Shown here one piece after another: positions 1 through 40,600 of a DNA stretch of 64,000 bases. The stretch comes from a virus. The stretch is taken from positions 179,841 through 243,840 of IMG/VR virus record IMGVR_UViG_3300041809_000571; one strand, written 5' to 3'. Made by a program: the position numbers and the translations under genes. The number at the start of each line of letters is the position of its first letter. Positions within the stretch are counted from its first letter, which is position 1. A model generated the notes under the pieces. That model made no database searches and was not told the origin of the DNA. It was given only the letters and a program-made list of their open reading frames with translations.

Positions 1-515
1 GCAATACCACTAGGCCAGTGTTCCTTTAGTCGCTGAATGCTTTCCCAGTTGTGCTTGTCCAGAGAACTCATCTGTTCGGGACGCATCTGACTCAAACGTT
101 CCAAGTCCTGCTTCCCCTTCCGATAGCCAAGGTAATATTCAAGCATCTCAGCAATGGAATCTTCATCCGGCACCACATCACCCGCAAGGTCGGAACCTCT
201 GACTTCAAAGATGTACCCATAAGGGTCTTTCCCCTTCAAGAATTGGTCGGCGAGATTGGGGTGTCCCAATATCTGTCCACCCACGGCGTTAATGGCGGCG
301 TAACCAAGACTGGTCGTCAAGTATACCCGGTCGTAGACGGGGGTGTACCACTTGCTCGGCGTGGGCTTAGCCCCAATCAAGATGGACGCTGGCTGAATGC
401 CGCTCTGGAGAATGCCTTGTGCAGCCTTCTCCTCCGTGGTGCCGTGGTAGAAAGTAGTATCTTTGGCTCCCTCATGAAGAGGGGCAGCGGATTTATTGAG
501 CAACTGGCTTAACAC
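1..515 (-). CDS. Partial ADP-ribosyltransferase-fold protein (H-Y-E class, 'FYHGT' motif). N-terminal ~171 aa are present and the gene continues past the window start.
   Basis: The minus-strand frame is open from coordinate 1 up to a stop at 573-575. A GTG start at 513-515 is preceded by AACAGGAGGAGAGG (SD, 5-nt spacer). The translation '...HEGAKDTTFYHGTTEEKAAQGILQSGIQP...WYTPVYDRVYLTTSLGY...YGYIFEVRG' carries an HGT motif, a Tyr cluster and a downstream Glu, as in the PARP/diphtheria-toxin/Tpt1 ART fold. This ORF is absent from the supplied track because its stop lies outside the window. Confidence 0.5.
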   Translation of the reverse strand, partial: MLSQLLNKSAAPLHEGAKDTTFYHGTTEEKAAQGILQSGIQPASILIGAKPTPSKWYTPVYDRVYLTTSLGYAAINAVGGQILGHPNLADQFLKGKDPYGYIFEVRGSDLAGDVVPDEDSIAEMLEYYLGYRKGKQDLERLSQMRPEQMSSLDKHNWESIQRLKEHWPSGI

Positions 516-3500
516 CCTCTCCTCCTGTTTCAACCTCAACGTGGTCCGGCCCCGCTTCGGGAGCCGCTGGCGCTACCTGCACTTCTTGTACCGCAGGGGC
601 TTGCTGTTTCTTCCGCACAGTGTCCCGGTCAGTACCCTCCGCCTTGCATATCGGACAGTGGCGGGATAGACCTCCGCTGTTCTTGAGCTTGCGCTCGAAC
701 TCACGGGCAACGTTATCCCAAACCCGTGCCACGGTGAACTCCACTCCCCGCTCGTGGGCAACCTCCATAATCCTCGCCCTTGAGGTTCCCTTCATGTGCT
801 GAGCGATGCGGGCTTCGGCATTCTCCGCCCAGCCGCAGTAGTGCCGGACGTTTGCCTGACTACCGTGCCCCAAACCGCCGCCGAGGAAGTGCAGGAGATA
901 CACCTGACCAATGGTCTGGCCTACGGCTACCTTGGGATTCATGATGGCCTTATATTTCGTATCCAAGTACTCGTCCTTGTCGATATCCCCCTCTCTATCA
1001 TTGGGGTTGAAATCGTCATTAGACCCAAAGCCATACAGGCCCAGTTCGGAGAGAAGGTCTTCATTGAGTTTACGCCAGACCTTTCCATCCCACATCTCTA
1101 TCCGGCTGGCGGGGATAGTCTTCTGGGTAAAGAATGCCTCGGCACCAGCATCGCCAGTTCCGTACTCATCTTCCTCGAACCCGTAACGCTTATACTCCTT
1201 GATGCGCAGAACCACGGGAATCATGCCATCGGAAACAGGGCTATCCGAGTTATGGTAAGCCCACTCCTCCGCCCGACCCACCCAGAACCCCACCCCTCTT
1301 GGGTCGGAGAAGAATATACGTCCCTTGGTGTGCCAGCCGTAGTTTTCACCGATGACCGGGGGATGACCGGGTTCCAATCCCTGCCAAATGATGTCTTCCA
1401 GCCGATTGGCATAAGTCACATGGTAGACATATCCCACCTTGGCAGCTTCCTTGGGAATGACCCATGAGGAAGCGGCGGTGACGTTCTTCCAAGCTGCCGG
1501 GGGCTGGTGCCACTCATTTTCACTGGTCTCCTTCCAACCAAGTATCTGCGGGTGCGTTCCCTCCTTTAAGCGTATCTCCTTCTCTTCCTGCCCAAGGGAG
1601 GGGTCAAGATTCACCCAGACGGTCGCCTCCCAGTCAACATCCTGTTCCTGCACTTGTGCATGGATGATGTATTTCTGGTAGCCCGGCCCAAAGTTTCCCC
1701 AGTGTGCCTCGGCGGCATCCTCATCCCATGACCAGAAGACCCCGATACCCCGGCGCTTTAACCCCCTGATGTCCTTGAGGGTAACTACCCGGTAGACATC
1801 CAAGGGGAAGGACCACATGGAGTGGTCGCCAAGAACATCGTAGTATCGGTTCTCCAAATCCTCATAGGCCCGGCGCTCCAAGTACTCCCGTTTTTCTTTC
1901 TGCTCCAAAGCATCAAAGGCTTCCGTCTCCGCCCGGTCGTAAGGTTCCCATTGGTCCCAACTGGAGCCAAACCCATTGACAATCTTTACAATCCCGCCCT
2001 CCTTTTCAACAAACTCATCCCATGATGGGAAATGAGAGACGGGAGAGGCGGTCATCGTAAGCTTCGCCTGCTCTTCCAGAACGTTCATGGGGATAATCGT
2101 TTTGTTACCACCCTCGCATTCCGGTTGATTAGCGTATCCTTCTAGTCCCTCACCTTCACCCAAGCTCTCGAAGTCATTCTCCCTGTGCGGCGTCTGCTTG
2201 TGGGAGTCTGCCGTCTTATTGAAAGCCTCATCAAGCTTCCGTTGGAAATCAGCAAAGGTCTGAGGCTCCTGCCCAATATCATTCCAGTAATCGGTGGTAT
2301 CCGAGCCGGGGATAAACCAGAACACCCGGTTCTCCTTAGCCATTTCCGCCATCCGGCGCATCTGAGCAGAAGTCGGTGGGGCTACCACATGGAAAGAAAC
2401 CTCACCGATGTTCTCCTCTACCCGAACGGCCCCGGTAAGCCACATGAACTCCTCTATGGCATTCTGTTTTCCGGGTTCACATTGTAGCCCCTGAACCGCC
2501 ATATACTGATGGTCGGCACAAGTACGCAAGGGGGTACCATCCGAGAAGATAAAGGCCACATCGCAATCCGGCTCCTGCTTAAACATCTTACGAACTCGCC
2601 GTTCCGCCTCACTCCGGGCAGCGGCTATAACCATTCGGTTTGCCGGGCGGAAATTCTTATCCTTCGGCCCCATGACTCCGGTGAGCTTAATAGATGCCCC
2701 CTGCACCAACCGTATCTCCGACTCCTCCGGGTCCTTAACATTGGCGTGCAACGTACCTTCCCAGTCAATCTGACTTTCACTCTCAATCACGGCTCGGAGG
2801 GTCCAGAATTCTCCCTTCACTCCTCGCACGGGAGACCAGATAGAAGACGGCCCAAAGTAAGCCTGCGCTCCCTCTTGGCTGACGCTCCATGAGACCCCGG
2901 TGTGCCCGAAATCCACCCGACTTCCAGCTACTATCTCCAACTCCCGGTAAACGGTAATAGGAAGCTCTAAGGAGTTGAGGTAGTCTACCCCTTCTTCCAA
3001 ATTCCAAACGGCCATTTGCAGGTCAGCACTGGCAGACAGGTCCAGTTTAGACAAGTACTTGTTGACGTTACGGGGCATCTGAACCCGCTGATGAGCCGCC
3101 CTCTTTTGCTTGGGCTTAGGTGGGATAATCTTGGCGGTATCCGCCGCCATCCAACGATACTGGTCAAAGTTGGCAGCAACCCACAGGGCGGCATCCCTTA
3201 AATCCTCGGCGACGAATACCGGTTTGCCATTCCTATCCGCAGGTAGGTGCCAACCGCTGTCCACGTGATAGATGGGAACAATATCCCGTGCTGCCCGGCC
3301 CCAGAAGATTACTTGGTCCTCGTTGTCCCCCGAGTGATAAACGTTCACCCCGGAGGCCCGGAAAACCACGGCGTGTTTGCCATACTTGCCTTCCACCTGA
3401 TTGGCATCGGCCACGGGAACACCAAAGTTGTAGCCCCCTATCTTCTTTGCCTTTTCCGTAAAGTAAGTGGTGAGTCCGAGGCGTCCAAGGTCGTGCATAC

Positions 3501-6500
3501 CGTACAGGAATCCATCTCTGGCAATCTCATCAGGGTTGTCCGTCATATGGACTAGCCACTGATTACGAACGATTCCCTGATACGTCATGAGCATGAAAGA
3601 GGGGGCGTTCGCCGGGTCGTGTTGCATGACCCAATCACTACCGTGCTCTAAATACTCTTTGTATGTTTCCGGGGGAATGAGAGCAAGCACCTCTTCTTCA
3701 CCCTCCCGGAGAGCTTCCCAGAAATCCCTACCGGCCCTCTCCGCTTGTACATTGCGGTGGGATTCTTCCATACCCTTGGACCAGTTGGCATAAGCTTCTT
3801 TTTCGTTCCGGCCTTGAGCGATGATGTCCCCATAGTGGTTCTTTATCCCCACCTTGCCCTTAGACAGGTCCACGGGGTGCTTCCCACGATAGGTCCAGAA
3901 TTGCTCATCCCCTTTAAGCCTGACAAATCCCCAAGGCATCTTGTCCTTGGCATTCCACTTACCGGGGTACTCAGGGGGTTCAAAGGGTTTGGGCTGCGGC
4001 ACGGGGAGAGTGGGAGCCTCGAAATCTTGTCCCTCTAACCACTCAACAAATTCATCGGGATAGAGCCGGGCAAGTTCCTCCCCCTGTATGTGCTCATCCA
4101 TCTGGAGGTAATTCTTAAGGTCAACGAGAGTGTCAACGATGAACGCCTTTTTGTGGGTGGAAGCGGTGCGTTTCTTGGCAGCACGGGGAATCATGGAGTA
4201 TTTGTTGATGTTGGCGATTGCCCACCTTGCCACTTCCTCAATGTCAGGAGACTCAAACAGCACGTCCCCTCCTACCTCATTAACGAACCACTTTCCCTCC
4301 GTGTGATACAAGGGAATGATATCTTTGGCGGTCTTACCCCAAAAGATTATCTGATAAAACTCATCCCCTGAGTGATAGGTGTTGACCCCGGAGGCCCGGA
4401 AGAGTACGGCCTCACTTCCAAAGGATACATTATTCCTTCCTACCCCCGCCTCTATACTGTGTGCATCATTCACAGGAACAGCGAAGTTGTAGCCTCCACC
4501 CTTCTTATCCTCATCCTTGAAGTAAGTGGTCAATCCAAGATGCGCCAAATCGCTTACTCCACGGGTGAATCCCTGCTTCGCCACGGAGTCGGCATAGTCG
4601 GTGAAATGGACGAGCCACTCATTCTTGACGATGCCCTTGTAGGTGAGGTGGATGAACGAGGGAGAGTACGCCGGGTCGTTCTCCATGGCGAAGTTGGCGG
4701 CTGGCTCCAAGAACTCCTCGTAGAGTTGGTCCGGCACCGCCTTCCAAGCAGCCTCATCATAATCCTCAAGAGCGGTGAGGAAACTCCTCCACCCCTTGAA
4801 CTTCTTGGGTAGAACAAAGTCGTTATTCCGCAGCCAGTCGATGAAGTACCCCGTATAAGCACGGGCTATTTCCTCACCCATGTCTCTCCTGCTCATGGTA
4901 AGGTAGTTGACTAGCCAAGTGAGGTTCTGACTCACCCTCGCTTGTTTCCTGATGACATCCAACCCCACCTTCTGAGAAGAGGTCTTCTCCAACTCCTCCA
5001 TGTCTTCATCAGGTTGAGATTCCTCATTCACCACCCCGTTACCGCAGATGGGGCAAGCGTCTGCTTCATTCTCCGGGAGATACTGCCAGCAGTAGGCGTG
5101 GTAATCATCATACCCCGGCTGACCGAGCTTGACCACGTTGATATCGGGGGGTCCAAACTGGTCATGGGTGATGTCTATGATGGTTCCATCTTCCGAGACG
5201 TTCCAAACATGGTCGATTTGCTTGCCGTTGTCTTCCAAGTACAGCCCGGCGTAAACGTCCCAGCCGTATTTTTGAGATGCAGCATCAGCAATGAAACCGC
5301 AGTTACCCTGACCCCTTATAGCGGTGGTGTCTCCCATGCGTAACTCAGTACGCAAAGCCCGAGCTTCTTCCAAGACTTCGGGGGTGGGTTGGGTATTCAC
5401 GGCGGAGGCTTTGCTCTGCTGATAGGCATCCGACTTGTCCTTGAGGTCTTGAAACCACTTCTCGGTTTTCTTCTGTCGCCGGGCACGAGACCACTCTCTC
5501 ATCTTCTCATAAATCTCTTGCCGCTTGGCTTTCTCTTCGGCAATAGTTGCCGGGGGCTTTTCATCCCACTGCAAGCGGAGGTCTGGCATCTTCATCATTG
5601 CTTCGGCGGAGAGAATCAAACCATGGTCATCCCTGTGGGGGTACTCCCAATGCCTAGAACCGATGTTTGGGGAGTTAACAAAGTCTTGGTCAGTGGTCTG
5701 AGTCAGCCGGTACTCTTCCATGTTCTTGCCGGTCATCCAGATTTTCTGCTTACCGGAGATGCGGATGGATGCCTGCCAACGGGGAGAACCCCAGCTAGTA
5801 CGAGAAAGCAAAAGAAAGAAAGGCCGCTCGGTAAACTGCTTCTCGTAACTCTCGTCAGATTTCGCCGTAATGAAATCCTTACCGTGTTTAGCGTTCCAAC
5901 GGTCGGCTATTTCCTTAAAGACCCAACCATGCCCGCCCTCTTGCCTCACTCTCCTATCAAACCCCTTCCCTCCGGGGTAAGTTGACCACACCTTAAGCAT
6001 CTGCTCATGGTGTACGAGTTCGTGAGCGAGGACACGAGTAAGGGTCTCCTCATCATAACAGATGGCTTTTTGAAGGAGGATGACGGTGTTAGGGTCTCCG
6101 TGCTTCCACTCGGTCCGACCCAGCCACTTGGAACGGGTGTAGTCCGCAATTCTAATTTGCGGCTCCGGGAGGCTGGGGTCCACATCCGGCATGAGCTTGT
6201 GAAGCACATTGATGACCGCCCCATAATCCAGAGCTTCGTCGGCGGCGATGATTCCCCGCTCCTTCAAAGACTTCCTGAGTTCCCCGCCCTCCCCCGTAGT
6301 GCCACTGCTGACAATTTGCTCACCGGGAAACTCCTCTGTGAGCTTTTTGTACATGGCGGTCGCTACACCCCGACGACGGTATTCCGGCTGGACATGAACG
6401 TACTTTATCCAGATTTCGTCATCGTATTCCGAAAAGTCCACATATCCGACCCGTGTTCCCTGTTGGGTCTCCTTGCCGTCAGGACCGGTCACCCAGACGC

Positions 6501-6639
6501 CGCCGCCCTCCAGCCAAGCCTCTACCCTGCCGGAAAGCTCTCCCCGGTGGGAATCGTGGATTTCCAAACGGACTGTCATGGGAGGCGCTTCCCCGGCTGC
6601 CCCGGCTGTCGGTTGAAGCAATGGATTGAGTGAACGCAT
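493..6639 (-). CDS. Giant 2048-aa multi-domain 'polyvalent' protein, a candidate injected effector: GNAT acetyltransferase + HExxH Zn-metallopeptidase + papain-like Cys peptidase + 2 tandem ART-like domains + C-terminal Zn ribbon
   Basis: GNAT fold at aa ~20-150 ('IKYVHVQPEYRRRGVATAMYKKL'). HExxH at aa 205-209 ('VLAHELVHHEQ'). Papain-like Q...C...H...D at aa 443-490 ('GQGNCGFIADA...IDHVWN...DITHD'). Two homologous ~160-aa domains at aa ~655-815 and ~1008-1165 ('WLVHFTDYA...LGLTTYF...FRASGVNTYHSGDE...IFWG' vs 'WLVHMTDNP...LGLTTYF...FRASGVNVYHSGDNE...IFWG'). C-terminal 'RHCPICKAEG'. Confidence 0.6.
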   Translation of the reverse strand: MRSLNPLLQPTAGAAGEAPPMTVRLEIHDSHRGELSGRVEAWLEGGGVWVTGPDGKETQQGTRVGYVDFSEYDDEIWIKYVHVQPEYRRRGVATAMYKKLTEEFPGEQIVSSGTTGEGGELRKSLKERGIIAADEALDYGAVINVLHKLMPDVDPSLPEPQIRIADYTRSKWLGRTEWKHGDPNTVILLQKAICYDEETLTRVLAHELVHHEQMLKVWSTYPGGKGFDRRVRQEGGHGWVFKEIADRWNAKHGKDFITAKSDESYEKQFTERPFFLLLSRTSWGSPRWQASIRISGKQKIWMTGKNMEEYRLTQTTDQDFVNSPNIGSRHWEYPHRDDHGLILSAEAMMKMPDLRLQWDEKPPATIAEEKAKRQEIYEKMREWSRARRQKKTEKWFQDLKDKSDAYQQSKASAVNTQPTPEVLEEARALRTELRMGDTTAIRGQGNCGFIADAASQKYGWDVYAGLYLEDNGKQIDHVWNVSEDGTIIDITHDQFGPPDINVVKLGQPGYDDYHAYCWQYLPENEADACPICGNGVVNEESQPDEDMEELEKTSSQKVGLDVIRKQARVSQNLTWLVNYLTMSRRDMGEEIARAYTGYFIDWLRNNDFVLPKKFKGWRSFLTALEDYDEAAWKAVPDQLYEEFLEPAANFAMENDPAYSPSFIHLTYKGIVKNEWLVHFTDYADSVAKQGFTRGVSDLAHLGLTTYFKDEDKKGGGYNFAVPVNDAHSIEAGVGRNNVSFGSEAVLFRASGVNTYHSGDEFYQIIFWGKTAKDIIPLYHTEGKWFVNEVGGDVLFESPDIEEVARWAIANINKYSMIPRAAKKRTASTHKKAFIVDTLVDLKNYLQMDEHIQGEELARLYPDEFVEWLEGQDFEAPTLPVPQPKPFEPPEYPGKWNAKDKMPWGFVRLKGDEQFWTYRGKHPVDLSKGKVGIKNHYGDIIAQGRNEKEAYANWSKGMEESHRNVQAERAGRDFWEALREGEEEVLALIPPETYKEYLEHGSDWVMQHDPANAPSFMLMTYQGIVRNQWLVHMTDNPDEIARDGFLYGMHDLGRLGLTTYFTEKAKKIGGYNFGVPVADANQVEGKYGKHAVVFRASGVNVYHSGDNEDQVIFWGRAARDIVPIYHVDSGWHLPADRNGKPVFVAEDLRDAALWVAANFDQYRWMAADTAKIIPPKPKQKRAAHQRVQMPRNVNKYLSKLDLSASADLQMAVWNLEEGVDYLNSLELPITVYRELEIVAGSRVDFGHTGVSWSVSQEGAQAYFGPSSIWSPVRGVKGEFWTLRAVIESESQIDWEGTLHANVKDPEESEIRLVQGASIKLTGVMGPKDKNFRPANRMVIAAARSEAERRVRKMFKQEPDCDVAFIFSDGTPLRTCADHQYMAVQGLQCEPGKQNAIEEFMWLTGAVRVEENIGEVSFHVVAPPTSAQMRRMAEMAKENRVFWFIPGSDTTDYWNDIGQEPQTFADFQRKLDEAFNKTADSHKQTPHRENDFESLGEGEGLEGYANQPECEGGNKTIIPMNVLEEQAKLTMTASPVSHFPSWDEFVEKEGGIVKIVNGFGSSWDQWEPYDRAETEAFDALEQKEKREYLERRAYEDLENRYYDVLGDHSMWSFPLDVYRVVTLKDIRGLKRRGIGVFWSWDEDAAEAHWGNFGPGYQKYIIHAQVQEQDVDWEATVWVNLDPSLGQEEKEIRLKEGTHPQILGWKETSENEWHQPPAAWKNVTAASSWVIPKEAAKVGYVYHVTYANRLEDIIWQGLEPGHPPVIGENYGWHTKGRIFFSDPRGVGFWVGRAEEWAYHNSDSPVSDGMIPVVLRIKEYKRYGFEEDEYGTGDAGAEAFFTQKTIPASRIEMWDGKVWRKLNEDLLSELGLYGFGSNDDFNPNDREGDIDKDEYLDTKYKAIMNPKVAVGQTIGQVYLLHFLGGGLGHGSQANVRHYCGWAENAEARIAQHMKGTSRARIMEVAHERGVEFTVARVWDNVAREFERKLKNSGGLSRHCPICKAEGTDRDTVRKKQQAPAVQEVQVAPAAPEAGPDHVEVETGGEGVKPVAQ
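3145..4977 (-). repeat. Tandem intragenic duplication (two ~260-330 aa units with a ~160-aa conserved core, ~50% aa identity) inside the polyvalent protein gene
   Basis: Hand alignment of unit A (aa 555-815) and unit B (aa 835-1165) from the translated ORF. Confidence 0.6.
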
Positions 6640-6708
6640 ATAACCCTTGGCTTTTCAAGTCCGGGGACAAGTTTCCCCCTGATTGAGAAATGAAAAGTCG
6701 TGGGGCTA

Positions 6709-6987
6709 TCAATGGTAACGGATTACGGTCTTGGCGTGAAGAGGAATAACGGTGTAATCGTACTCATCCGCTTCCTCATTCTTCTCGGTTATGATGACTA
6801 AGTAGTGTCCTATCTTGGCGATAAGGCCGACTGCGGTAATCTTGGAACCAACAAATTCCTCACCCGCTTTCATTTTATCGAAGTCCGGCAGCGCCTTCCT
6901 GCCCTCCCCATAGGCGTCTTCCCAGTCCACCTCACCGGGGCGGAATCGCACACCTTTGATAACTACTCCCTTCGGCTTCATGGTCAC
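6709..6987 (-). CDS. hypothetical protein (92 aa)
   Basis: ORF with coding-like composition in the operon context; no motif recognised. Confidence 0.45.
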   Translation of the reverse strand: MTMKPKGVVIKGVRFRPGEVDWEDAYGEGRKALPDFDKMKAGEEFVGSKITAVGLIAKIGHYLVIITEKNEEADEYDYTVIPLHAKTVIRYH

Positions 6988-7044
6988 CTACCTATGAATA
7001 TTACCGGATTCTGGGTCCTTCAACCATGCGCCCGGAAGTTTTCT

Positions 7045-7881
7045 TTATCTCATTGAGTTCAGCACCTTAAAGTAGATGGAGCCGGTCATCGGCTTTTTCT
7101 CCAGTTTTTCTGAGGTTTCTGGTTTGGCCGGTTCAGACTTTTCTTCCTTCTTTGCGGGCTTTTGGGCGAACCGACACCAGTCATCGGCATCCACCTCAAT
7201 GGTGCCATCGGGAAGCTTTTTTTCTTGTAGCTCCGGGTCCGCCATAACCACGGGATGTTTGCAGGAGTCTACTTCTACCCCTTCGGCGTTCTTGGAGTGA
7301 GGCGTTCTGTGACGGCAGTCCATACAGGTCGCCGGGCCGTCATGCCAAAAACCGGTCAGTTTGGACCCCGCCATGTCGTACTCTGTTCCCTTGATTCTCT
7401 CCAAAATCCCCTCATCTGCCGATGTCTTTTTCATGTCCTTGTCCTTTTCCTGATGCTCTTCTACCTTACTGCGAAGAGAACCGATATCCGTCTCAAAACA
7501 GTCACCCAATCGACTGTCTCCCCATTCCTTGGGGTAATGGGACAGGTAGAGCTTTTGTGCTGACTCCAGATTCGGGACCCCGGCAACCAGCTTGTACTCG
7601 TCAAACTCCCCATCCTCGTCAAGCTGTTCAATGACGAAGACCTGACTAGCTTCCTTGTCGCCCCCGATGTAAATGTCTAGTGGTTCTGCATCACCCTTGG
7701 CGGATGTATCGTCAATGTATCCATAATCAGCTTTCATTTCCCGCCGCCACGTTCTGCCGTTTTTGTCCTTGCCTTCCCGGACACAACCCTTGGGCCACTC
7801 AATGACCACGGGAATTCCGTGGTATTCTACACTATGGTGTTGAGGCAGCTTGGCTTCTTTGGCGATACTGGCTTCCGGCAT
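7045..7881 (-). CDS. Inorganic-pyrophosphatase-like domain protein with a C-terminal Cys/His cluster (278 aa)
   Basis: The N-terminus 'IPVVIEWPKG...DYGYIDDTSAKGDAEPLDIYI...DEDGEFDEYKLVAGVP' resembles family-I PPase motifs (VVIEIP...NYGYI...DGDPVDVLV...DEAGEDAKLVAVP). The region between the K-Y-E and D-R motifs is shortened, so the domain may be inactive. Confidence 0.35.
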   Translation of the reverse strand: MPEASIAKEAKLPQHHSVEYHGIPVVIEWPKGCVREGKDKNGRTWRREMKADYGYIDDTSAKGDAEPLDIYIGGDKEASQVFVIEQLDEDGEFDEYKLVAGVPNLESAQKLYLSHYPKEWGDSRLGDCFETDIGSLRSKVEEHQEKDKDMKKTSADEGILERIKGTEYDMAGSKLTGFWHDGPATCMDCRHRTPHSKNAEGVEVDSCKHPVVMADPELQEKKLPDGTIEVDADDWCRFAQKPAKKEEKSEPAKPETSEKLEKKPMTGSIYFKVLNSMR

Positions 7882-8048
7882 ACACTTCTCCTGAATAAGA
7901 ATCGGGAATTTGTAGTATTAGACATCATGCGCAGAGATTGGTCCACCAAGGGGATGTAACGGCGAGTGCATGGAATGTACCCAAAACGCCAACTATCACC
8001 CCCATCAGTAGTGATAACGCCAAATAAAAACACCGCCACAGGAGGATT

Positions 8049-9320
8049 ATGAGTACAGAGAAGCCTACGAGGGATGAGTTTATTCAGGAGGCGCAGAGGC
8101 TATCCAACAACGGGAGCCAACCTGTAAGCCGTGATTTCTTTCGTAACAACAGCCCACTTAAGGACCGATGGGCTGCGTATTTCCCCACCTTCGAGGCCCT
8201 TCTTGATGCAGCCAACATAAAGCACGCCCGCAAGGTTGCCCAACCCGCCGCCAAAGCCGCCAAAGTTGCTCCACCCCCGGAAGAGCCGAGGGAAGTATAT
8301 CTGCGCCGGGACAACAGCCGTCTCAGAAACGAAGTAAAGAAGGCGCATGAGGAGCAGGGTTACTGGCAAGAGATGACCGACGCCATTGTGGACGCCATCA
8401 CTGGCTTGGACCCGTTACCGCCCGTGGAGTTTGAATCACCCATGGGTGCGGGTAGCGACATGGCTGCGTGCATCAAACTCTCCGACTGGCATATTGGCGA
8501 AATCATCAAGCCCGAGGAGACCGAGGGATTCGGCATTTACAACTGGGATATAGCACAGGAACGTATGAAGTACATTGCACAGAAGTTCCTCGGCTGGGTG
8601 GATACACACCGAACTACCTTCAATATCCCCAACCTGTATGTCTTCGGAGAAGGTGACTGGGTATCCGGCGACATCCACGAAGAACTCACCCGCACGAACG
8701 AGTTCCCCCTCCCCGTACAGGCAACGCAAGCGGGCAAGCTGCTGGCGCAGACCGTCTCCACCTTCGCTCCCCATTTCGACAAGATAACCCTCGTAGAGAT
8801 TGGGGCGGACAACCACGGACGGCTGGTAAAGAAGCCACAATCCAAGCAGAAGTCCAGCAACTCCATGAGCCATGTCGTTTACGAAATTGCCAATGCCTAT
8901 CTCCAGAAGCATGAGAACATCGACATCGTTACCACCGAGGGCATGAAGCATGTGGTCGATGTGGTGGGCGTGAAGTTCCTCCTCGAACACGGCGACACCG
9001 TAAAGGCATGGATGGGCATTCCCTTCTATGGCCTCGAACGTGAGCGGGGCCGGGAAGCCATCAAGCGGATGCAGGCAATGCTGGATGCTTGGCGGCAGGA
9101 AATGGAAGATATGACGAAGCTCGGCTTCGACTATATCTCCTGCGGTCACTGGCATGTCCCCGGTATTGTATCCGGCAACATTCTCATCAACGGAAGTCTC
9201 AGCGGCACATCGGAATTTGACCACGGCTGTGGACGGCACGCCCGCCCATCGCAGGTCAGCTTCCTTGTTCACCCGGAACACAAGCTGTTCGATTGGGTCG
9301 CTTGGACGCCGCCCATGTAG
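8049..9320 (+). CDS. Calcineurin-like metallophosphoesterase (423 aa) with an N-terminal ~130-aa extension
   Basis: Motifs LSDWHIGE (D-x-H), GEGDWVSGDIH (GD-x-x-D), GADNHG (GNH), LEHGD, SCGHWHVPG (GH-x-H). Preceded by AGGAGGATT-ATG. Lies on the opposite strand to its neighbours. Confidence 0.65.
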   Translation: MSTEKPTRDEFIQEAQRLSNNGSQPVSRDFFRNNSPLKDRWAAYFPTFEALLDAANIKHARKVAQPAAKAAKVAPPPEEPREVYLRRDNSRLRNEVKKAHEEQGYWQEMTDAIVDAITGLDPLPPVEFESPMGAGSDMAACIKLSDWHIGEIIKPEETEGFGIYNWDIAQERMKYIAQKFLGWVDTHRTTFNIPNLYVFGEGDWVSGDIHEELTRTNEFPLPVQATQAGKLLAQTVSTFAPHFDKITLVEIGADNHGRLVKKPQSKQKSSNSMSHVVYEIANAYLQKHENIDIVTTEGMKHVVDVVGVKFLLEHGDTVKAWMGIPFYGLERERGREAIKRMQAMLDAWRQEMEDMTKLGFDYISCGHWHVPGIVSGNILINGSLSGTSEFDHGCGRHARPSQVSFLVHPEHKLFDWVAWTPPM

Positions 9321-9420: not shown

Positions 9421-9873
9421 ATGGCAAAAGAACGTGGGATGCCCAAAGAGTGGGCAGACTTCCCCAAGAAGAAAGACGAACACGGACGCTGGCTCTGCCG
9501 CTTCTGTGGAAAAGTTCTAACCGGTCGCCGGACCTCGTGGTGCAGCAAGCAATGCACCATTGAAGTCCTCCTCCTCTGCGACTGGTCATTCATCCGCAAC
9601 AAAGTAAAACGCCGGGACAAGTACCGCTGTGTCCTCTGTCATCGGAATAAGCACGAGGCAGGCTCACTGGAAGTTGACCACACCGTGGAGTTGCAGGATG
9701 GTGGGAAGACGGTGATGGAGAATTTGCGCACCCTGTGCAAGCGATGCCACAGAAAGAAGACAGCGGCGGAGAAGAAACGGCGGAGGCTACTTAAGGAACA
9801 ATCCCCACCTGCCGAAGCTTGTAAAGAACATCCCTCTCCGCCATCCAAGCCACTAAATTCTTGTAGTCCTTGA
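9421..9873 (+). CDS. HNH endonuclease (150 aa)
   Basis: 'CRFCGK...CSKQC' Zn ribbon plus 'EVDHTVELQDGG...NLRTLCKRCHRKKT' HNH core. Confidence 0.75.
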   Translation: MAKERGMPKEWADFPKKKDEHGRWLCRFCGKVLTGRRTSWCSKQCTIEVLLLCDWSFIRNKVKRRDKYRCVLCHRNKHEAGSLEVDHTVELQDGGKTVMENLRTLCKRCHRKKTAAEKKRRRLLKEQSPPAEACKEHPSPPSKPLNSCSP

Positions 9874-19896: not shown

Positions 19897-21024
19897 TCAG
19901 ATTACCTCCCCTTTCAAAATTGCCTGACTGGAAGAGGCATTTCCGACTACATTCCGGGCGGGCAAAGTCCGAGTGACCGTCTTGCTGACCACCGGTTTTG
20001 ACACTCTCGCCGCCCCCATAAGCTCGTACACAAAGAGGGGGAGGGCATCAGCGGGAATGAACGGGGTCGCTAACCATTTTAGAAATATAGCGGAAGTCTC
20101 CTTAATGTTGGGGAGCGCCTCGGCAATACGAGCAAGCTCCGAGGCTGGCTCCGACCATGGGGACTTGGCATAAAGGGAAAAGGTAGTTTCAATGACCTTG
20201 GTTGGAAGCGCTACCCGTGCTCCATCGTCGGCGAGCTTGACGGCAGCGGCTTGGTCCCCGTGGCTTATAGCCAGCAGGATGCTGTAGCATACGCTTTCGA
20301 GGGGATTATCCAGAACCTTGTCAACGTTCTCCCTGTTAACCTTGCCCAGTGCGGCGGCGAATCCCAGCCAACGGACCGCTTCCCTTATGATGCCTTTGGA
20401 GTGTTTGGCGATGTCCTTGATAGCATCAAGCTCATAATCAATGCCGTTACGGGAGGCTATGCTTGCCATCAGGCCCGTAATCACGTCGTCTGTGGCACGA
20501 TAGAAAGTCAGCGGCAAACAGCGGGACTGGATGGTCTTGGGGATGCGGTTGTCATCGGTGGTAACGAACATGAAAATGCTGTCAGTGTCGGGACGCTCCA
20601 GTGGCTTGAGGAAAACATCCCAAGCTTCCGAAGAAAGCCGATGGGCTTCATCAATCACAGCGACCCGGCGCTTCCCAGTGATGGGCGGCTGCGCCATGCA
20701 GTCCATTAAATTGCGGGCATCTTGCACGCCGGGATGCTCAGCAGCATCCGTTTCAAAGAAGTCGGCGTCATGCTCAATTGTCTCTTGGTCGATGAAGCGA
20801 CAGGAGGGGCACGTTCCACAACCCAGTGGGTCACTCCCGGCGCACATGAGCGCACGGGAAAGAAGGTAGGCCACAGAGGTTTTCCCAAGGCCCCATGGAC
20901 CTTTGAGGATGAAACCACGAGGAAGAAACTTTCCCGTAGTCAGAAGACTCTTGAGTAAGGATACGACCCTGTCTTGTCCCACGACTTCGCTCCAAGCCGT
21001 GGGACGAAAGGAGATTAGATTCAT
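19897..21024 (-). CDS. dnaX: Clamp loader ATPase, DNA polymerase III gamma/tau (DnaX)-like
   Basis: 'VVGQDRVV...GPWGLGKTSVAYLLSRALMC...GCGTCPSCRFI...VAVIDEAHRLS...SRC': AAA+ Walker A and B, Zn module and sensor motifs. Confidence 0.75.
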   Translation of the reverse strand: MNLISFRPTAWSEVVGQDRVVSLLKSLLTTGKFLPRGFILKGPWGLGKTSVAYLLSRALMCAGSDPLGCGTCPSCRFIDQETIEHDADFFETDAAEHPGVQDARNLMDCMAQPPITGKRRVAVIDEAHRLSSEAWDVFLKPLERPDTDSIFMFVTTDDNRIPKTIQSRCLPLTFYRATDDVITGLMASIASRNGIDYELDAIKDIAKHSKGIIREAVRWLGFAAALGKVNRENVDKVLDNPLESVCYSILLAISHGDQAAAVKLADDGARVALPTKVIETTFSLYAKSPWSEPASELARIAEALPNIKETSAIFLKWLATPFIPADALPLFVYELMGAARVSKPVVSKTVTRTLPARNVVGNASSSQAILKGEVI

Positions 21025-34389: not shown

Positions 34390-36951
34390 TCATACACCTT
34401 GTCCGCTGCCTTCCGGCCCTTGTTCAGGTTCCTCATCAACTTCGTCAAGCTGCAATCCCTTGATGACCCGCTTGACGACATCGGACCGCTCCATGACCAC
34501 TTGCCCGATGGAGTTGTAGATGTTGCTCAGCAACTCGTTGAACTTGGCGTCATTCACACCATACAAATCCTCTTCCAGCTTGCGCTTGGCATCTTCGGGG
34601 TCGATTTCCAAAAACTCCAAGATAATACTAACTGGAATACTACCTTTGGAATAAAGATTGTAAAGCATGTCGTAAACGTCCCCGGCGTCACGCAGAGCGA
34701 GCCTAGAGAACGATACCTTGGGGTATATCCAGCGGGGCTTATCCCACTTATCCTTTTCGTAGAATCCCTTCTTCATGGCGACGGGCTTGAAGATACTATT
34801 TTCAATGATGTCAGCAAGCACGTCACGGAACTGGAGATAGGAGGTTTCGATAAGCTGCAACTGGACCTTGTTGCCGGAATAGAGTCCTTCACCAATGAGG
34901 ATTTCCGGGCTGAATCCAAGACCGATGGACAGGTCGGAGTTAGTGTGCTGCCATTCTCCGTCCAGAGATAGCAACCTACCATCCGAACCAATCTCATCCC
35001 ACCGGGCCTCGTAGTTCAATACGACGCTGTAGTCCGGGTCGGCCTTGGCTTCGTCAATGTGCGCACGGAGAGCCATGACTTCGGCGGGCGGGATATCGGG
35101 GGCGATGACCAACGTTTTGGGCGTCATGTTACGAGACGCCAACGTGGACTGCACTTGTCGCAGCTTTTCACGGTAGATGACTGTGCGGATACAACGCTGG
35201 AGGATAGAACGACCGTGAAGTTCGTAGTCACTCTTCTTGCGGGCGAAGTGGATGACGTAAGAACCCTCGAAGGGGTCCTTGTTCAAAGCAACCTTGCCGT
35301 CCGCTTCCAACATACCCTTGACTTCGGAATCGACCTCGGGGTCTTCAAGGTATGCGGTTTTCTGCTTTTCGAGCGGCTTATAGTATACGGTCGGCCCGGC
35401 TGTCATGCTGTCCCCGGCCTCAAGCTCTATCTGCTCGGGAGGAAGGACGTTGATGGCGTCAAAGCCCTCGTAGTCTTTGTTCTCCAAGTGGGAGAAAAGC
35501 TCCTCCTCTTCCTTGCGCTGTTTGCGGATATCCTCCAATTCCTCCAAGACCTGCTTCTTTTTCTCCAGCAGTTTGATGATGCGCTTGAGTTCAAGGAGTT
35601 CCTTTTGCTTGGCGAGGGTTGACCCTTGGGAGATGGCATTCTGCACCGCCCCCACTTGGTCACCGGGGGTCGTCGGCTCGGGAGGCATTCCACCCCCTCC
35701 ACCACCTCCCATGGGAGGAAGCCCACCGCCTCCACCTAAATCTCCTCCTAAGTCTCCACCCAAATCTCCGGGAGGGAGGTCTCCACCGGGTTCTCCCATG
35801 GGGTCCACACCGGCAACACCTTCCAGCCCGGCATCCCCCATCGGTGCTCCCTCTCCACCAGCGGGTGGAGGTGCGCCCGCATCGGGAGGAGCGGCGACTT
35901 TCACCTGAATGGGATAATCATCCTCGGCCTCATCACGGGTGATGAGCTTGGACTCCTTATTCTCCATAGCCAGCTTGATAAATCCCTTGACGCTGGCCGC
36001 TTTCTTTGTGTAGCTGATTTTCTTCTTGCGGATTTCATTCTTGACGTTGGCAATGGTCTCGTCAGGAGCAAAGAGGTTGAACTTAATGCCTGCCTTCTTG
36101 ATTTCACAGATAATGGCGGACTTCTTTTTGAGCCAACTAGAACGCTTTTCAGGCTGGAGAAAGTCCAAGATGGCGTCCGATGTGCCGCCCATCATGGAGC
36201 CTTCGCCTTCCATGCCCGGCTCGGTAGATTGAGCATTGGGGCGCTTTTTGTTCTTCGCCTCCGCCTTCTCTATCTGAGCCTTTGCCAACTTGGAAGGTTC
36301 AACGGGTTCGGCTTCCTGAATGAAAATGAAAGCCTCCCCGATGGTCCAGTATTCCCGGACCGCCTGAATCAAAACCTGAAAGAACTTGGTGTCACTGATA
36401 AGTCCCTGATAGAAGTCGTAAACATAGTCAGCGAAGTCATCGCTGGAACACTTGGGCTTCTCTAATGCCCACTTGGACAAGGGAAGTTCGGTGTGCATGT
36501 CAATAGCACGTCCGACGATGGGGTCCCGGTCATAAGCGAGTCGATAGAACCGGAGTTCTTCCGCCCGGCTGGCGGGGAGTTCGAGGGCGTCTACCGGGAA
36601 CTCATAGCTGTAGTAACCGATGTTGTTGGAATCGGCGATGTCGGCGTTGCCGAGGGTGCCATCACTGAACAGGGCGGCGGTCTTCTGCCGGGTAAGCTCG
36701 TACATCCCCCATCCCTGCGCACCGAAAGGGGTACCTTGGGTCGCCATCTGGCGGACCCGGCTAACCAGAACGTCGGCAATCATTCCGTCATTCGTCATAC
36801 TGGTCCGGGGGCCTGCGGAGGCGTATTGCTTACCACCCTTGCTGGCAGCAACTTTTCGCTTTATTTCGGTGGTCCCCACACGCAAATTAGCTCCCCGTTC
36901 CCTCTTAACCAACACGCTCTTGGGGGTCGTCGTAGTTTTCTTTTCAGCCAT
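34390..36951 (-). CDS. Putative portal protein (853 aa) with an internal Gly/Asp/Pro low-complexity insert
   Basis: Size, acidic C-terminus and a loose resemblance to the T4 gp20 core; the resemblance is weak. Confidence 0.3.
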   Translation of the reverse strand: MAEKKTTTTPKSVLVKRERGANLRVGTTEIKRKVAASKGGKQYASAGPRTSMTNDGMIADVLVSRVRQMATQGTPFGAQGWGMYELTRQKTAALFSDGTLGNADIADSNNIGYYSYEFPVDALELPASRAEELRFYRLAYDRDPIVGRAIDMHTELPLSKWALEKPKCSSDDFADYVYDFYQGLISDTKFFQVLIQAVREYWTIGEAFIFIQEAEPVEPSKLAKAQIEKAEAKNKKRPNAQSTEPGMEGEGSMMGGTSDAILDFLQPEKRSSWLKKKSAIICEIKKAGIKFNLFAPDETIANVKNEIRKKKISYTKKAASVKGFIKLAMENKESKLITRDEAEDDYPIQVKVAAPPDAGAPPPAGGEGAPMGDAGLEGVAGVDPMGEPGGDLPPGDLGGDLGGDLGGGGGLPPMGGGGGGGMPPEPTTPGDQVGAVQNAISQGSTLAKQKELLELKRIIKLLEKKKQVLEELEDIRKQRKEEEELFSHLENKDYEGFDAINVLPPEQIELEAGDSMTAGPTVYYKPLEKQKTAYLEDPEVDSEVKGMLEADGKVALNKDPFEGSYVIHFARKKSDYELHGRSILQRCIRTVIYREKLRQVQSTLASRNMTPKTLVIAPDIPPAEVMALRAHIDEAKADPDYSVVLNYEARWDEIGSDGRLLSLDGEWQHTNSDLSIGLGFSPEILIGEGLYSGNKVQLQLIETSYLQFRDVLADIIENSIFKPVAMKKGFYEKDKWDKPRWIYPKVSFSRLALRDAGDVYDMLYNLYSKGSIPVSIILEFLEIDPEDAKRKLEEDLYGVNDAKFNELLSNIYNSIGQVVMERSDVVKRVIKGLQLDEVDEEPEQGPEGSGQGV
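35676..35790 (-). repeat. Low-complexity coding repeat (GDLPPGDLGGDLGGDLGGGGGLPPMGGGGGGG)
   Basis: Repeated AAGTCTCCACC/AAATCTCC units on the plus strand. Confidence 0.6.
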
Positions 36952-37649: not shown

Positions 37650-40600
37650 CTAGGCAGGTTTCTTGAGGTAATGTTCGGGGATGTGGTCTATGGCTCGGTC
37701 GTGAAGGCACATCCGTATGCCATCATGAAGCACCCAGACGGACTTGTCCCCCTTACCCAGAGTGATGTCGATTTGCATAAGGGTAAGCTGGTCGGCCCCA
37801 GAAATATCGTACACGGTTACACCGGGAGGGGGTCCCTTGGTTTCCGGTACTTCGGGGGTGGAATCTACCACGGGAGGAGCTACAGTGGGTTCTGGCGGGG
37901 CTACAGGGAGGTTCTCCGCTGCGACGAACAGATTGAGGGTACCTTGGGTACCCCCAACCCCTTCTGACGCTTCCTGTGGTGAATTCCACGAAATCTCCAC
38001 TTTCAGGGGTTCGGGGACATAGCGTTTCACCGGAGCGTCTAAGGGCAGAGAACCGAGAGGTCCATATATCAAAGCTGCCGGGTTACGGTCAGCCGGTCCA
38101 AGGCCCATCCGAGTTTCGTACTGTTCCAAGGTCTCCAACTTCGCATCATCCTCGTCGGGCATATTGTCAATACGCCAGAATTCGTCAAGCTGAATGGCCG
38201 CTATGAGCGCCCGCTGGATTTCCTTGGGGTCGGTCTGGGGTACGACTTCTTTCTTCCCCTTCTTCTTGTTGAAGCACCACCAAGCCGCTTGGAAGGCCCG
38301 CTCGTGCAGGTTTTCCTTGAGGAAGGCTTTTGCCTTTTCGACCCGAGCTTCCACCTGAGAAGAGATAGCCTTTATCAGGTTCTTGATGGTCGCACTATCC
38401 CACTCTCCGGGGAGGTACCTGTCCATACCGGATACCCTTGTCCAAGCGGCGGGGATGTGGTCATCATCGCCGGTCACATGATGCTCAACGTCCCAACTGG
38501 GTCCATATTCCGCATCCGCTTCGATGGGCACCTGCCACTTCATAATCTGGTGCAGCTTGCGCAACTTCATCATGCGAGTGATGCGGGGGAGAACGAAAGG
38601 CACGTATTCATTCTTCACGGAAAAGTCGATTTCATCGTGAACCGAACAATGCAACATGAAGATGGTTGCAATAAGCGGGTCTGCTTCAACCCACTGGCGA
38701 ATCTTGTTGAGAGACATCCGCATGAAATCCCCGCAGAGTCCTTGAATGGGGGCATTGACGCTGACCCGCTGAATCTTGCCCATGAACTTGCTGTAGTCCA
38801 TGGCATTGCGAACACCAGTGTCGGGGTTCTTCCACATGGAATTGGCAAGGTTGAGATACTCTTTCCACCGGGGGTCATCAGCCTCCTTAAGCTCCTTCGA
38901 CTTTTTCATGTAATCCCGATACTGCCATAGGTTCTTCTTTTCCTCCTCGTTCGGGACATGAATGTGTAGCGCCTTCATGGCGGAGTCAAACTTGATGACT
39001 CGATTCGTAGTGGTGGTGCAGATGAGTTGGTCTCGGGCAATTGCTTGTTTGCGCTGGCAAAACTCGAAGAACACCGGCACACCCTTCCAGTAGTTTTCCA
39101 CCATTTCCTCACACCGTTGGAAAGTGATGTTGGGGTCCTGCTTCTTCATGTTCTCGTAAATGGTGTAGGCGGTGCCGCCGTAAAGCAGAGCGAAGTTGAT
39201 AATCTTCGCCAAGTCACGCAGGTGCTTAGCACGGTAGTTAGGACTCTTGGGGTCGGAGAATTCCGGGAAGACCTTGCTAGCAGTGAGGGAGTGGAAGTCA
39301 CCCTTGCCATGCAAAAACTCATTGATGAATTCCGGCTCACCCGAGCAGTTGGCGGCGGCACGCATTTCGATATTGCCGTAGTCAACGGTGAAGAATGTCC
39401 ATCCGGGCGGCGAGTAGAACAAGCAGCGGAGATTGACTCTCTGGTTGGCATCAATCTTACCATTCTCGATAAGGAAACCAAACTTGTCTTTGCAGGTCTG
39501 ACAGCCCGGCACCAGACAAACGGTATAACCCATGTACTGACCAATATGATTGTGGATAATACCGGGAGCCTGTTTACGAACCTTAATCTTTTTCTTTGAG
39601 AAAGAAGAAAGTGTAGGAAGGGGAGCAGTAAATTCTCCCTTTTTAAGTAGCTCCGGTTCTCTTGTATATATTTCTGGAACCCAATAAGCGGGCCTACCTA
39701 CATCTCCGGGGTCTTTCTTGAATTTCTTATTCTTCCCCTCATGGGCATAAACCCACCCTGTGATTTCAAAAACCCGAGGCCAGTCTTCCCCCTTATCAAT
39801 GACATTGGAGTTGACTACGAGACGAGAGTCCTCGTCCGAATCTTTTACCTTTAGTTCGCTCATTTTGTGACTACAGCGACCCTCACAAGGCGTGTCTCTG
39901 TAAACAAAATCAGGCTGTGTTCGATATGTACCGTTGGTAAAATCATACCTGATTTCTAACCATTTGGTTGGGACATATTCCCCGCAAACACCGATATAGT
40001 GAGAAAGTAGGGAGTCCCTGCCAAGATAATTCTTACGCTTCTCCTTCAAGGCCGTATCCAACCGTTGCTGAGCATAATCCTTCATGAGGGCGACCTCTTC
40101 ATCAGTCAAGGTCAGCCTTGGTCTGTCTCTCTCAGGTATGTCATCAAAAATTGTCTCTTCCTCTTCAACCTCCCTGAAACACGATGGGTGAAGCTCTTCC
40201 TCGGTGTGGGGTTCTATCTGGTCTTCGGGAATCTCATCAGGAATGAGGACATTTCCCGTCACCTTCCACATCAAGTAACCTTCCACCTTTTTCACAGCTT
40301 GGCTGTTAAGACCGAACCCACCATCCTTGTAAAAGTCACCGCCAGCGGAGGACAGGCGTCCCCCGGCGACCACATTCTGTTTAAGGTATATGCGGGCAGT
40401 GCCATCACTCGGGTCATAGTGGAGGCTGGAAGGGTGTAGGGAGATGTAGCTCTTGTAGTCTGAGAATACTTCAAGGAACTCATCCTCCGGGTGCAGCTTG
40501 TGAAGGTCTTCCACCACCTCGGCATCACACGAGGCTTTCTTAACGCCACTCTTCCCGCCATCCGTCATCTTGAGAGGAGCATAGCCTTTGACATCAAAGA

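Follow-up and report, generated by a model that had tools for sequence, protein, structure and literature searches.

The closest described counterparts of the proteins analyzed here are the phage polyvalent proteins of Iyer, Burroughs, Anand, de Souza and Aravind (2017; PMC5512222), whose modules include the ADP-ribosyltransferase (ART) domain ART-PolyVal (PF18760, with an H-Y-D triad, of the Tox-ART-HYD2 clade), GNAT acetyltransferases, zincin metallopeptidases and inorganic pyrophosphatases (InPase). The prototype in that work is Alt of phage T4, an R-S-E ART that is packaged in the head, injected and modifies host RNA polymerase; models of polyvalent proteins and of their delivery by phages are given in PMC5512222, PMC9503650 and PMC7824862. 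Here we analyzed a window of 64,000 nucleotides (positions 179,841 to 243,840 of the IMG/VR record IMGVR_UViG_3300041809_000571), in which an open reading frame (ORF) of 2048 codons (493..6639, minus strand) is followed by the beginning of a second gene, p2 (1..515, minus strand). Our analysis established how the modules of these proteins are arranged, that two domain families have the ART fold, that a His-Tyr-Glu-type triad is conserved and that the locus comes from a phage, and we consider it likely that both proteins belong to a run of giant polyvalent effectors in a jumbo phage.

The 2048-codon ORF is uninterrupted and has an alternative start at Met21 (nucleotide 6579). The gene is real and conserved, since the protein called from Met21 (P0001) is a database record on the parent contig of the window, a metagenomic contig of 364,142 bp (ena:ERZ27249816:k141_1180871), and a relative of 1935 amino acids (P0002), encoded on an independent contig, is 83-91% identical over the aligned parts. 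An earlier interpretation made from the letters alone (hereafter the sequence-only reading) had proposed both this ORF and its polyvalent architecture, and both are borne out; the motifs that it quoted (LVH[FM]TD, LGLTTYF, FRASGVN.YHSGD and FYHGT) are all found in the sequence. Only 11 relatives were detected among the 5.8 billion proteins searched, most of them 1400-3300 amino acids long and carrying Pfam ART-PolyVal, PARP, 2H, GNAT and SprT-like domains. A polyvalent protein combines at least two disparate activities in one polypeptide and is encoded by a phage, a plasmid or a conjugative element. In this case a single chain combines a GNAT domain above the Pfam cut-off with a zincin-like HExxH module, members of two ART-fold families and other modules, and it is encoded on a 364-kb contig together with portal, clamp loader, family-A DNA polymerase (PolA) and exonuclease genes. 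We conclude that the 2048-amino acid protein belongs to the phage polyvalent proteins as defined by Iyer et al. (PMC5512222).

The protein is a string of autonomous modules joined by short linkers with a recurrent [KIV]-T-A-[ASD] motif. It contains a GNAT module, a zincin-like module, a Cys-His-Asp module, two ART-fold repeats, two copies of a domain with an R...[S/A/T]W...ExE pattern (hereafter R..W..ExE), one unassigned module, a second type of ART-fold module and a GIY-YIG-like module. Searches of Pfam, PHROGs and NCBIfam, run with whole proteins, with isolated segments at E<=10 and with 71 members of the repeat family, returned nothing for the repeat, the R..W..ExE domain, residues 1350-1476, residues 1727-1908 or the product of nucleotides 1-515.

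The first ART-fold type is the tandem repeat. Copy 1 (residues 565-830; 4150..4947, minus strand) consists of a helical head and an ART-fold core, and copy 2 (residues 830-1185; 3085..4152, minus strand) carries in addition an insert of 94 residues (877-970; window 3730-4011, minus strand) between the helical head and the core. In BLASTP comparisons, residues 618-786 and 971-1132 are 49% identical (E = 3e-56), and the helical stretches 565-611 and 830-876 also match each other (E = 6e-8). The sequence-only reading had described two tandem copies of a domain of about 160 residues; the duplication is real, and the unit is larger than stated, at about 260 residues made up of the helical head and a core of about 165, with an insert in copy 2. 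Two copies occur only in the 2048-amino acid protein and its closest relative. A recent tandem duplication was considered and rejected, as the copies share 44% identity with each other, about the level at which they resemble single copies from other proteins (40-53%).

The repeat defines a large family. A HMMER profile built from seven copies matched 1132 clusters (at 50% identity) at E<=0.001 among 1.84 billion representatives, 460 of them at E<=1e-30, and many members are stand-alone proteins of 250-290 amino acids with the same helical head and core. None of the 71 members matched any Pfam or PHROG model, no tested member matched NCBIfam, and the repeat profile had no match among PDB sequences. 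Members were found on 55 IMG/VR viral contigs, many of them 100-455 kb long. By comparison, tblastn with the repeat and with a stand-alone member found none in 50,697 GenBank phages, a Foldseek search of BFVD with the repeat model gave nothing at E<=0.001, and a scan of 185,579 species genomes with subfamily-specific patterns gave a single match.

Two structure predictions and three fold searches were made in total. The model of the repeat shows the split beta-sheet characteristic of the ART fold, and its top structural matches are Scabin and pierisin (tabulated figures: Scabin, 6.0; TreX, 5.6; ArtA, 5.2; pertussis toxin S1, 5.1). Taking the secondary-structure elements in order, the candidate positions for the triad of H-Y-E-type ARTs are the WLxHF[TS] His, which closes strand 1 and is invariant in all 71 members; the Tyr of GGYNFA on strand 2, which is Tyr in 62, Phe in seven and Trp in two of the 71; and the Glu of HxGDEExQVIF at the start of strand 5, kept in 69 of 71. 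A His, an Asn, a second His, an Asp, a Glu and a Gln are invariant or nearly so across the family. Copy 2 keeps all of H1031, Y1070, E1107 and Q1109, and the corresponding residues of copy 1 are H678, Y717, H756, D759, E760, F761 (in the family Glu column) and Q763. As read from the alignment, the signature of the family is His / GGYNFA / HxGDEExQVIF rather than H-Y-D. The His, Tyr and Glu positions were assigned from the order of the elements and not by superposition, and they are predicted to line the NAD pocket.

The second ART-fold type was recognized through p2. The frame at nucleotides 1-515 is open to the window edge and runs for 1261 codons on the parent contig; the window holds the first 171 of them (residues H24, Y65 and P116-D117-E118-D119), and the frame was missing from the ORF list because ORFs leaving the window were not listed. 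What had been taken for a stand-alone gene is thus the start of another polyvalent protein. Outside the window lie the last two strands of the N-terminal module, two ART-PolyVal domains at residues ~650-915 and 951-1146 (E = 1.5e-33) and a HAD-like C-terminus with a DxDGT motif. The GTG start of p2 at nucleotide 515 is preceded by a GGAGG box and overlaps the final 23 nucleotides of the 2048-codon ORF, which agrees with co-transcription, and no terminator-like site was found between the two genes; describing them as an operon was fair.

The 171 residues encoded by nucleotides 1-515 matched nothing in Pfam and had no ART-PolyVal match at E<=10. They belong to a small family (p2-N) found both as stand-alone proteins of 200-400 amino acids and inside other polyvalent proteins, with His24-Gly25, Tyr65, an Ala, Pro116-Asp-Glu-Asp119 and, beyond the window, a C-terminal GAHVAH.G invariant. 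A stand-alone homolog of 201 amino acids (P0165), modelled from a 17-sequence alignment that included the window fragment, gave a predicted local distance difference test (pLDDT) score of 94.5 and a predicted template modelling (pTM) score of 0.88, and on the basis of this model the p2-N family is predicted to have the ART fold. DarT1 and Tpt1 head its structural matches, which also include the pseudo-ARTs TASOR pseudo-PARP, PARP13 and RCD1. Links at the level of sequence are weak: the best PDB match is to Tpt1 at the YHGT motif (PDB 8tfi, E = 0.29), a relative has a sub-threshold match to PF01885 (E = 0.013), the member P0046 matches Pfam PARP at E = 0.074, and the profile of the family reaches into a part of P0006 that scores above the Pfam PARP threshold.

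Tpt1/KptA enzymes have an Arg-His-Arg-Arg catalytic tetrad. This tetrad is not found in the p2-N family, because its alignment contains no invariant Arg. The proposal that the next gene encodes an ART- or Tpt1-like protein therefore holds for the fold, as predicted for its family, and fails for membership of Tpt1. A small stand-alone Tpt1-like protein was likewise rejected as an identity for the 1-515 product, whose family has no invariant Arg and which belongs to the 1261-amino acid p2.

A relative of the p2-N module lies within the 2048-amino acid protein itself, at residues 1727-1908 (916..1461, minus strand; motifs YVYHVT, RIFFSD and FEEDEYG). The hhalign comparison of this module (alignment A6) with the p2-N family reaches 96.4% (E = 1.2e-9, 82 columns), which is why we count it as a third ART-fold module of the protein; it has a Phe in place of the invariant Tyr of the family. 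The protein thus has three ART-fold modules drawn from two families, with a conserved triad in two of them. The sequence-only reading had suspected three paralogous ART-like modules, namely the two repeats and the 1-515 product. The shared superfamily fold stands, and the paralogy does not: hhalign gives a probability below 1% for the repeat family against the module of the next gene, and the repeat shows no detectable relation to either p2-N or ART-PolyVal, a short p2-N/ART-PolyVal match at 60.8% being the exception among these comparisons. On these values (<=1%), we rejected a diverged ART-PolyVal as an identity for the repeat, and likewise its paralogy with the 1-515 module. The echo noted between the motifs of the repeat and those of the 1-515 product is best described as fold-level convergence of patterns and not as a sign of recent shared ancestry; the segment of the large ORF that is truly related in sequence to the 1-515 product, residues 1727-1908, had not been flagged.

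In the IMG/VR loci, the repeat family occurs inside giant ORFs together with ART-PolyVal, R..W..ExE, p2-N and Cys-His-Asp modules, or as stand-alone genes. Among 30 distinct stand-alone repeat genes, seven abut a stand-alone ART-PolyVal gene, two abut a p2-N-type gene and two abut a second copy, which suggests a functional partnership. The contig of the stand-alone member P0037, 1.3 kb long, gave no information on neighbouring genes. Abutting genes were seen at L030 (4892-7079) and at L013, L015, L021, L043, L047, L049 and L052.

The linker motif, in its wider form [KIVLM]-T-A-[ASGD] and often TA[SD]xHK, occurs at nearly every module border of the 2048-amino acid protein and p2. Examples on the minus strand are RTAS(THK) between the two repeat copies (4159..4170), KTAD (2206-2217), MTAS (2044-2055) and VTAA (1471-1482); in p2 the motif stands at residues 283, 619, 920 and 1151 (locus L001). 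Across 35 long relatives, 161 occurrences of the core tripeptide were counted where shuffles predict 77.8, a 2-fold enrichment, and the motif is 3.9-fold denser outside recognized domain cores than inside them. P0002 lacks residues 1350-1475 exactly between two linker motifs. These distributions fit, without proving, a role of the TA-linkers as candidate protease processing sites.

The remaining modules of the 2048-amino acid protein were assigned with differing strength. The GNAT module (residues ~21-135; 6235..6579, minus strand) matches PF00583 at residues 41-108 with E = 2.4e-7 and 31.5 bits, above the gathering score of 20.7; it also matches the acetyltransferase phrog_3810, and RRRGVA at residues 88-93 fits the acetyl-CoA motif R/Q-x-x-G-x-G/A, so that the GNAT assignment made from the sequence is confirmed. 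The zincin-like metallopeptidase module (residues ~135-400; 5440..6237, minus strand) has HELVH at residues 206-210 (nucleotides 6010-6024). The HExxH motif is kept in nine of nine relatives, as are the GHG, N and G.DF.T..SD positions downstream of it, and the SprT-like model PF10263 scores below threshold in this protein (E = 0.009, 16.4 bits) and above it in the relative P0004 (29.6 bits, cut-off 25.6). The motif behind the proposed zincin is therefore present and invariant, and the family match is sub-threshold here.

A papain-like Cys peptidase had been proposed for the next segment (residues ~430-545; 5005..5352, minus strand), which also carries a Cys-rich CPIC ribbon. C447, H477 and D489/H492/D493 are invariant in alignment A5, and the Cys447/His477/Asp489 order is kept in all six sequences; six of six members match the uncharacterized Pfam family YunG, only below threshold (best E = 6.2e-5), and a profile search of PDB sequences gave no match. 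A papain-like identity is plausible for this module. At the other end of the protein, a module with a second CPIC ribbon (residues ~1910-2003; 631..912, minus strand) weakly resembles GIY-YIG, with PF01541 at E = 0.015 and 16.1 bits (cut-off 22.6) and Zn_ribbon_NUD at E = 0.009; this tail had no significant match among PDB sequences.

The R..W..ExE domain occurs twice, at residues 1216-1346 (2602..2994, minus strand; VYR 1230-1232 and EESEIRL 1305-1311, carrying the invariants of alignment A4) and at residues 1590-1725 (1465..1872, minus strand; VYR 1615-1617 and EEKEIRL 1685-1691). There are 46 copies in relatives and viral loci, two or three per relative, with R28 (FPLxVYR), W47 (GVYW[SAT]W) and E97 plus ExE (EExEIRL) invariant. 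Its hhalign match to ART-PolyVal fell from 45% (E = 2e-4) with small alignments to 9.6% when these were enlarged, and it may be regarded as a candidate minimal ART of the R-S-E type, a class with Arg on strand 1, Ser or Thr on strand 2 and [QE]xE on strand 5. Between the two copies lies the unassigned module at residues 1350-1476 (2212..2592, minus strand), which is cleanly absent from P0002. The junction in that protein, RMIVADSHKQTP, fuses the linker motifs flanking the lost module, suggesting module gain or loss through linker recombination. After the linker that follows stands a conserved peptide, DSHKQTPHRENDFESLGEGEG.EGYA.QPEC (residues ~1477-1530; window 2055-2211, minus strand), shared by several relatives (53% identical to residues 1406-1461 of P0004 and also present in P0025), which could be a targeting or recognition signal.

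With regard to its context, the window carries portal (34390-36951, minus strand; phrog_16240, E = 1.8e-20), clamp loader (19897-21024, minus strand), PolA (37650-41810, minus strand), RecA-like ATPase (44689-46029, minus strand), exonuclease and HNH genes, and is thus part of a jumbo phage genome. A megablast search of GenBank phages with nucleotides 1-8000 gave no matches, and exact DNA patterns used to lengthen the parent contig had none in JGI metagenomes or IMG/VR. The effector genes form a co-directional array, in the order InPase, 92-amino acid ORF, 2048-amino acid protein, p2, EndoVII, a protein of 1436 amino acids (p3) and a protein of 3027 amino acids (p4). The InPase gene directly upstream of the array (7045-7881, minus strand) is a stand-alone gene of the polyvalent type (Pfam PF18823, E = 5.7e-33), and the 92-amino acid ORF lies at 6709-6987 (minus strand). 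Downstream of p2 and EndoVII, p3 (L001 20545-24855) combines several GNAT domains with a cREC domain and also contains a relative of residues 1727-1908 of the 2048-amino acid protein (E = 1.6e-7), and p4 (L001 24871-26087) has nucleotidyltransferase (NTase) and ART-PolyVal matches. The exonuclease (8049-9320, plus strand; phrog_284, E = 5e-47) and HNH endonuclease (9421-9873, plus strand) genes lie on the opposite strand inside the minus-strand run. Farther away, a protein of 764 amino acids with collagen triple-helix repeats (58448-60742, minus strand; E = 1.4e-26) adjoins one of 1063 amino acids with TPR, methyltransferase and glycosyltransferase domains (60779-63970, minus strand).

Taking these results together, we propose the following model. 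By analogy with T4 Alt, P1 DdrB/DarB, the N4 virion RNA polymerase and the general model of polyvalent proteins, the proteins would be made late and loaded into the capsid, or delivered early along with the DNA. The zincin or another protease would cut the linkers, and host proteins or nucleic acids would then be modified at an early stage of infection by the released modules, with NAD+ (nicotinamide adenine dinucleotide) and acetyl-CoA as donors; host takeover or the blocking of defences would result. Support comes from the phage genes in the window, the polyvalent-type domains of the relatives and of p2, p3 and p4, the third ART-fold module, the recurrence of the modules in giant ORFs of IMG/VR contigs and the enriched linker motif. 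It also comes from the closest cultured-phage protein, gp321 of phage Tunturi_5, which is encoded among connector and tail genes, and from the seven of 30 stand-alone repeat genes that abut ART-PolyVal.

Several observations count against this model. No Pfam ART-PolyVal match was found in the 2048-codon ORF, including its isolated segments at E<=10, and a local ART-PolyVal profile that found 27 copies in the relatives found none in it. Copy 1 of the repeat has Phe761 in the near-invariant Glu column, with Glu760 adjacent. The p2-N model represents P0165 (alignment A9, in which the window fragment, row 2, window:1-515, is 35% identical) in place of the window protein. For the zincin, Cys-His-Asp and GIY-YIG modules the matches all stay below threshold, and the nearest recognized structural gene on the contig of the array, the portal, lies some 28 kb off, too far to indicate linkage to virion genes on this contig.

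Nucleic-acid targets are a live option, because the structural neighbours include the DNA- or RNA-directed ARTs Scabin, pierisin, DarT and Tpt1. It is possible, though somewhat unlikely, that the ART-fold modules act specifically on nucleic acids or in RNA repair, through base ADP-ribosylation like that of DarT, Scabin and pierisin or through the Tpt1/KptA type of 2'-phosphate removal from RNA, in which the cREC, InPase and HAD-like modules would also take part. Scabin and pierisin, both DNA-directed, are neighbours of the repeat, DarT1 and Tpt1 are neighbours of p2-N, whose YHGT motif also gives the weak Tpt1 sequence matches, and cREC and HAD-like phosphatase modules, which process ADP-ribose and phosphate ends, occur in the same array (PMC9503650). 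The missing invariant Arg of p2-N speaks against the RNA-repair form, and the idea is in any case a refinement of the effector model rather than a true alternative to it.

We consider it unlikely that the proteins are not injected at all and instead act in the cytoplasm at early or middle times, or serve as internal head scaffolding that has no function once injected, with the linker as a flexible spacer. Such a role would fit the position of the array, whose neighbours are genes of replication and recombination (exonuclease, HNH, EndoVII, PolA and RecA-like) and not recognized head or tail genes, and a motif enrichment of merely 2-fold. It fits less well with the location of Tunturi_5 gp321 inside a structural module, with the linkage of the polyvalent class to virion genes and its portal or MuF fusions (PMC5512222), with the putative zincin hub domain in the same polypeptide, or with the loss of a module from P0002 exactly at fused linker motifs.

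That the ART-fold modules are inactive and serve for binding, as decoys or sponges of NAD+/ADP-ribose signals or as docking adaptors, leaving the GNAT and the ART-PolyVal domains of p2 as the catalytic parts, appears unlikely to us. The Phe761 of copy 1, the Phe at the p2-N Tyr position of residues 1727-1908 and the pseudo-ARTs among the structural matches would all fit that case. Set against them, six residues are invariant or nearly so in 71 members, as is typical of active sites and not of binding surfaces; in copy 2 the residue set is complete, and the p2-N family keeps its His, its Tyr and the Asp-Glu-Asp. Finally, a bacterial polymorphic-toxin or defence locus on a large contig can practically be dismissed, given the portal and clamp loader genes in the same window, the presence of the repeat family on 55 IMG/VR viral contigs with one match in 185,579 species genomes, and the lack of recognized RHS/YD repeats, secretion domains or immunity genes.

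Within the favoured model of injected polyvalent effectors, we tentatively raise a more specific possibility, namely that the repeat unit represents an undescribed and catalytically active ART clade, nearly confined to uncultivated large phages, that would join ART-PolyVal in attacking host nucleic acids or defence proteins with several ARTs at once, its units being released at the TA[AS] linkers. The partnership is suggested by the repeated adjacency or fusion of the genes. The putative clade would comprise at least 1100 clusters at 50% identity, would be recognized by WLxHF[TS] / GGYNFA / HxGDEExQVIF together with the helical head, and has no match in Pfam, PHROGs, NCBIfam, BFVD or the 50,697 GenBank phages searched.

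These results indicate that much of what looks unannotated in these giant phage proteins consists of ART-fold modules missed by current profile libraries, and that one such missed family comprises more than a thousand sequence clusters and includes many stand-alone jumbo-phage genes. Should the modules prove active, the number of NAD+-dependent modifying enzymes in jumbo phages would be far higher than Pfam-based surveys suggest. The repeat family, with its size of about 260 amino acids and its stand-alone versions, is a tractable candidate for finding new ADP-ribosylation targets, and the TA[AS] linker motif offers a concrete handle on the processing of polyvalent proteins.

In comparison with known systems, the locus resembles the polyvalent proteins of Iyer et al. 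in joining many unrelated enzyme modules in one giant phage polypeptide, with a GNAT beside ART-type modules and a putative zincin hub, in the adjacent InPase gene and in the two bona fide ART-PolyVal domains of the next gene. It differs in that the 2048-codon ORF has no ART-PolyVal and that its ART-fold modules belong to two other families outside Pfam, PHROGs and NCBIfam. The closest protein of a cultured phage, Tunturi_5 gp321 (PP885688, annotated as "MutT/NUDIX hydrolase"; PMC11924767), comes from a 309-kb myovirus of Tunturiibacter and lies between head-tail connector and tail genes. It carries a zincin 37.6% identical to residues 142-329 of the 2048-amino acid protein and two ART-PolyVal domains, with 43.6% identity to residues 640-928 of p2; at 1362 amino acids, it lacks the repeat family, the R..W..ExE domain and a p2-N-type module.

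T4 Alt provides the working model for injected phage ARTs, yet it is a single-domain protein of the R-S-E Alt/VIP2 clade with no sequence relation found here, and the packaging of the present proteins is predicted by analogy with it. DarT, Tpt1/KptA, Scabin and pierisin are 12-20% identical and gave no significant match in sequence or profile searches; conservation does not extend to the Arg tetrad of Tpt1, and the proteins described here have an extra helical head and an insert. Profile searches of the PDB with five module alignments and the GIY-YIG-like tail likewise gave no significant match (best, Tpt1 at E = 0.29). AcrF11, a minimal-ART anti-CRISPR, is a small single-domain protein with a much weaker match and no sequence relation found. 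Since polyvalent proteins and phage ARTs are a recognized strategy of host takeover and anti-defence, the system as such is not new. What is new are two ART-fold families, possibly three, that lie outside Pfam, PHROGs and NCBIfam, one of them large and nearly confined to uncultivated big phages, and the linker motif that joins the modules of these proteins.

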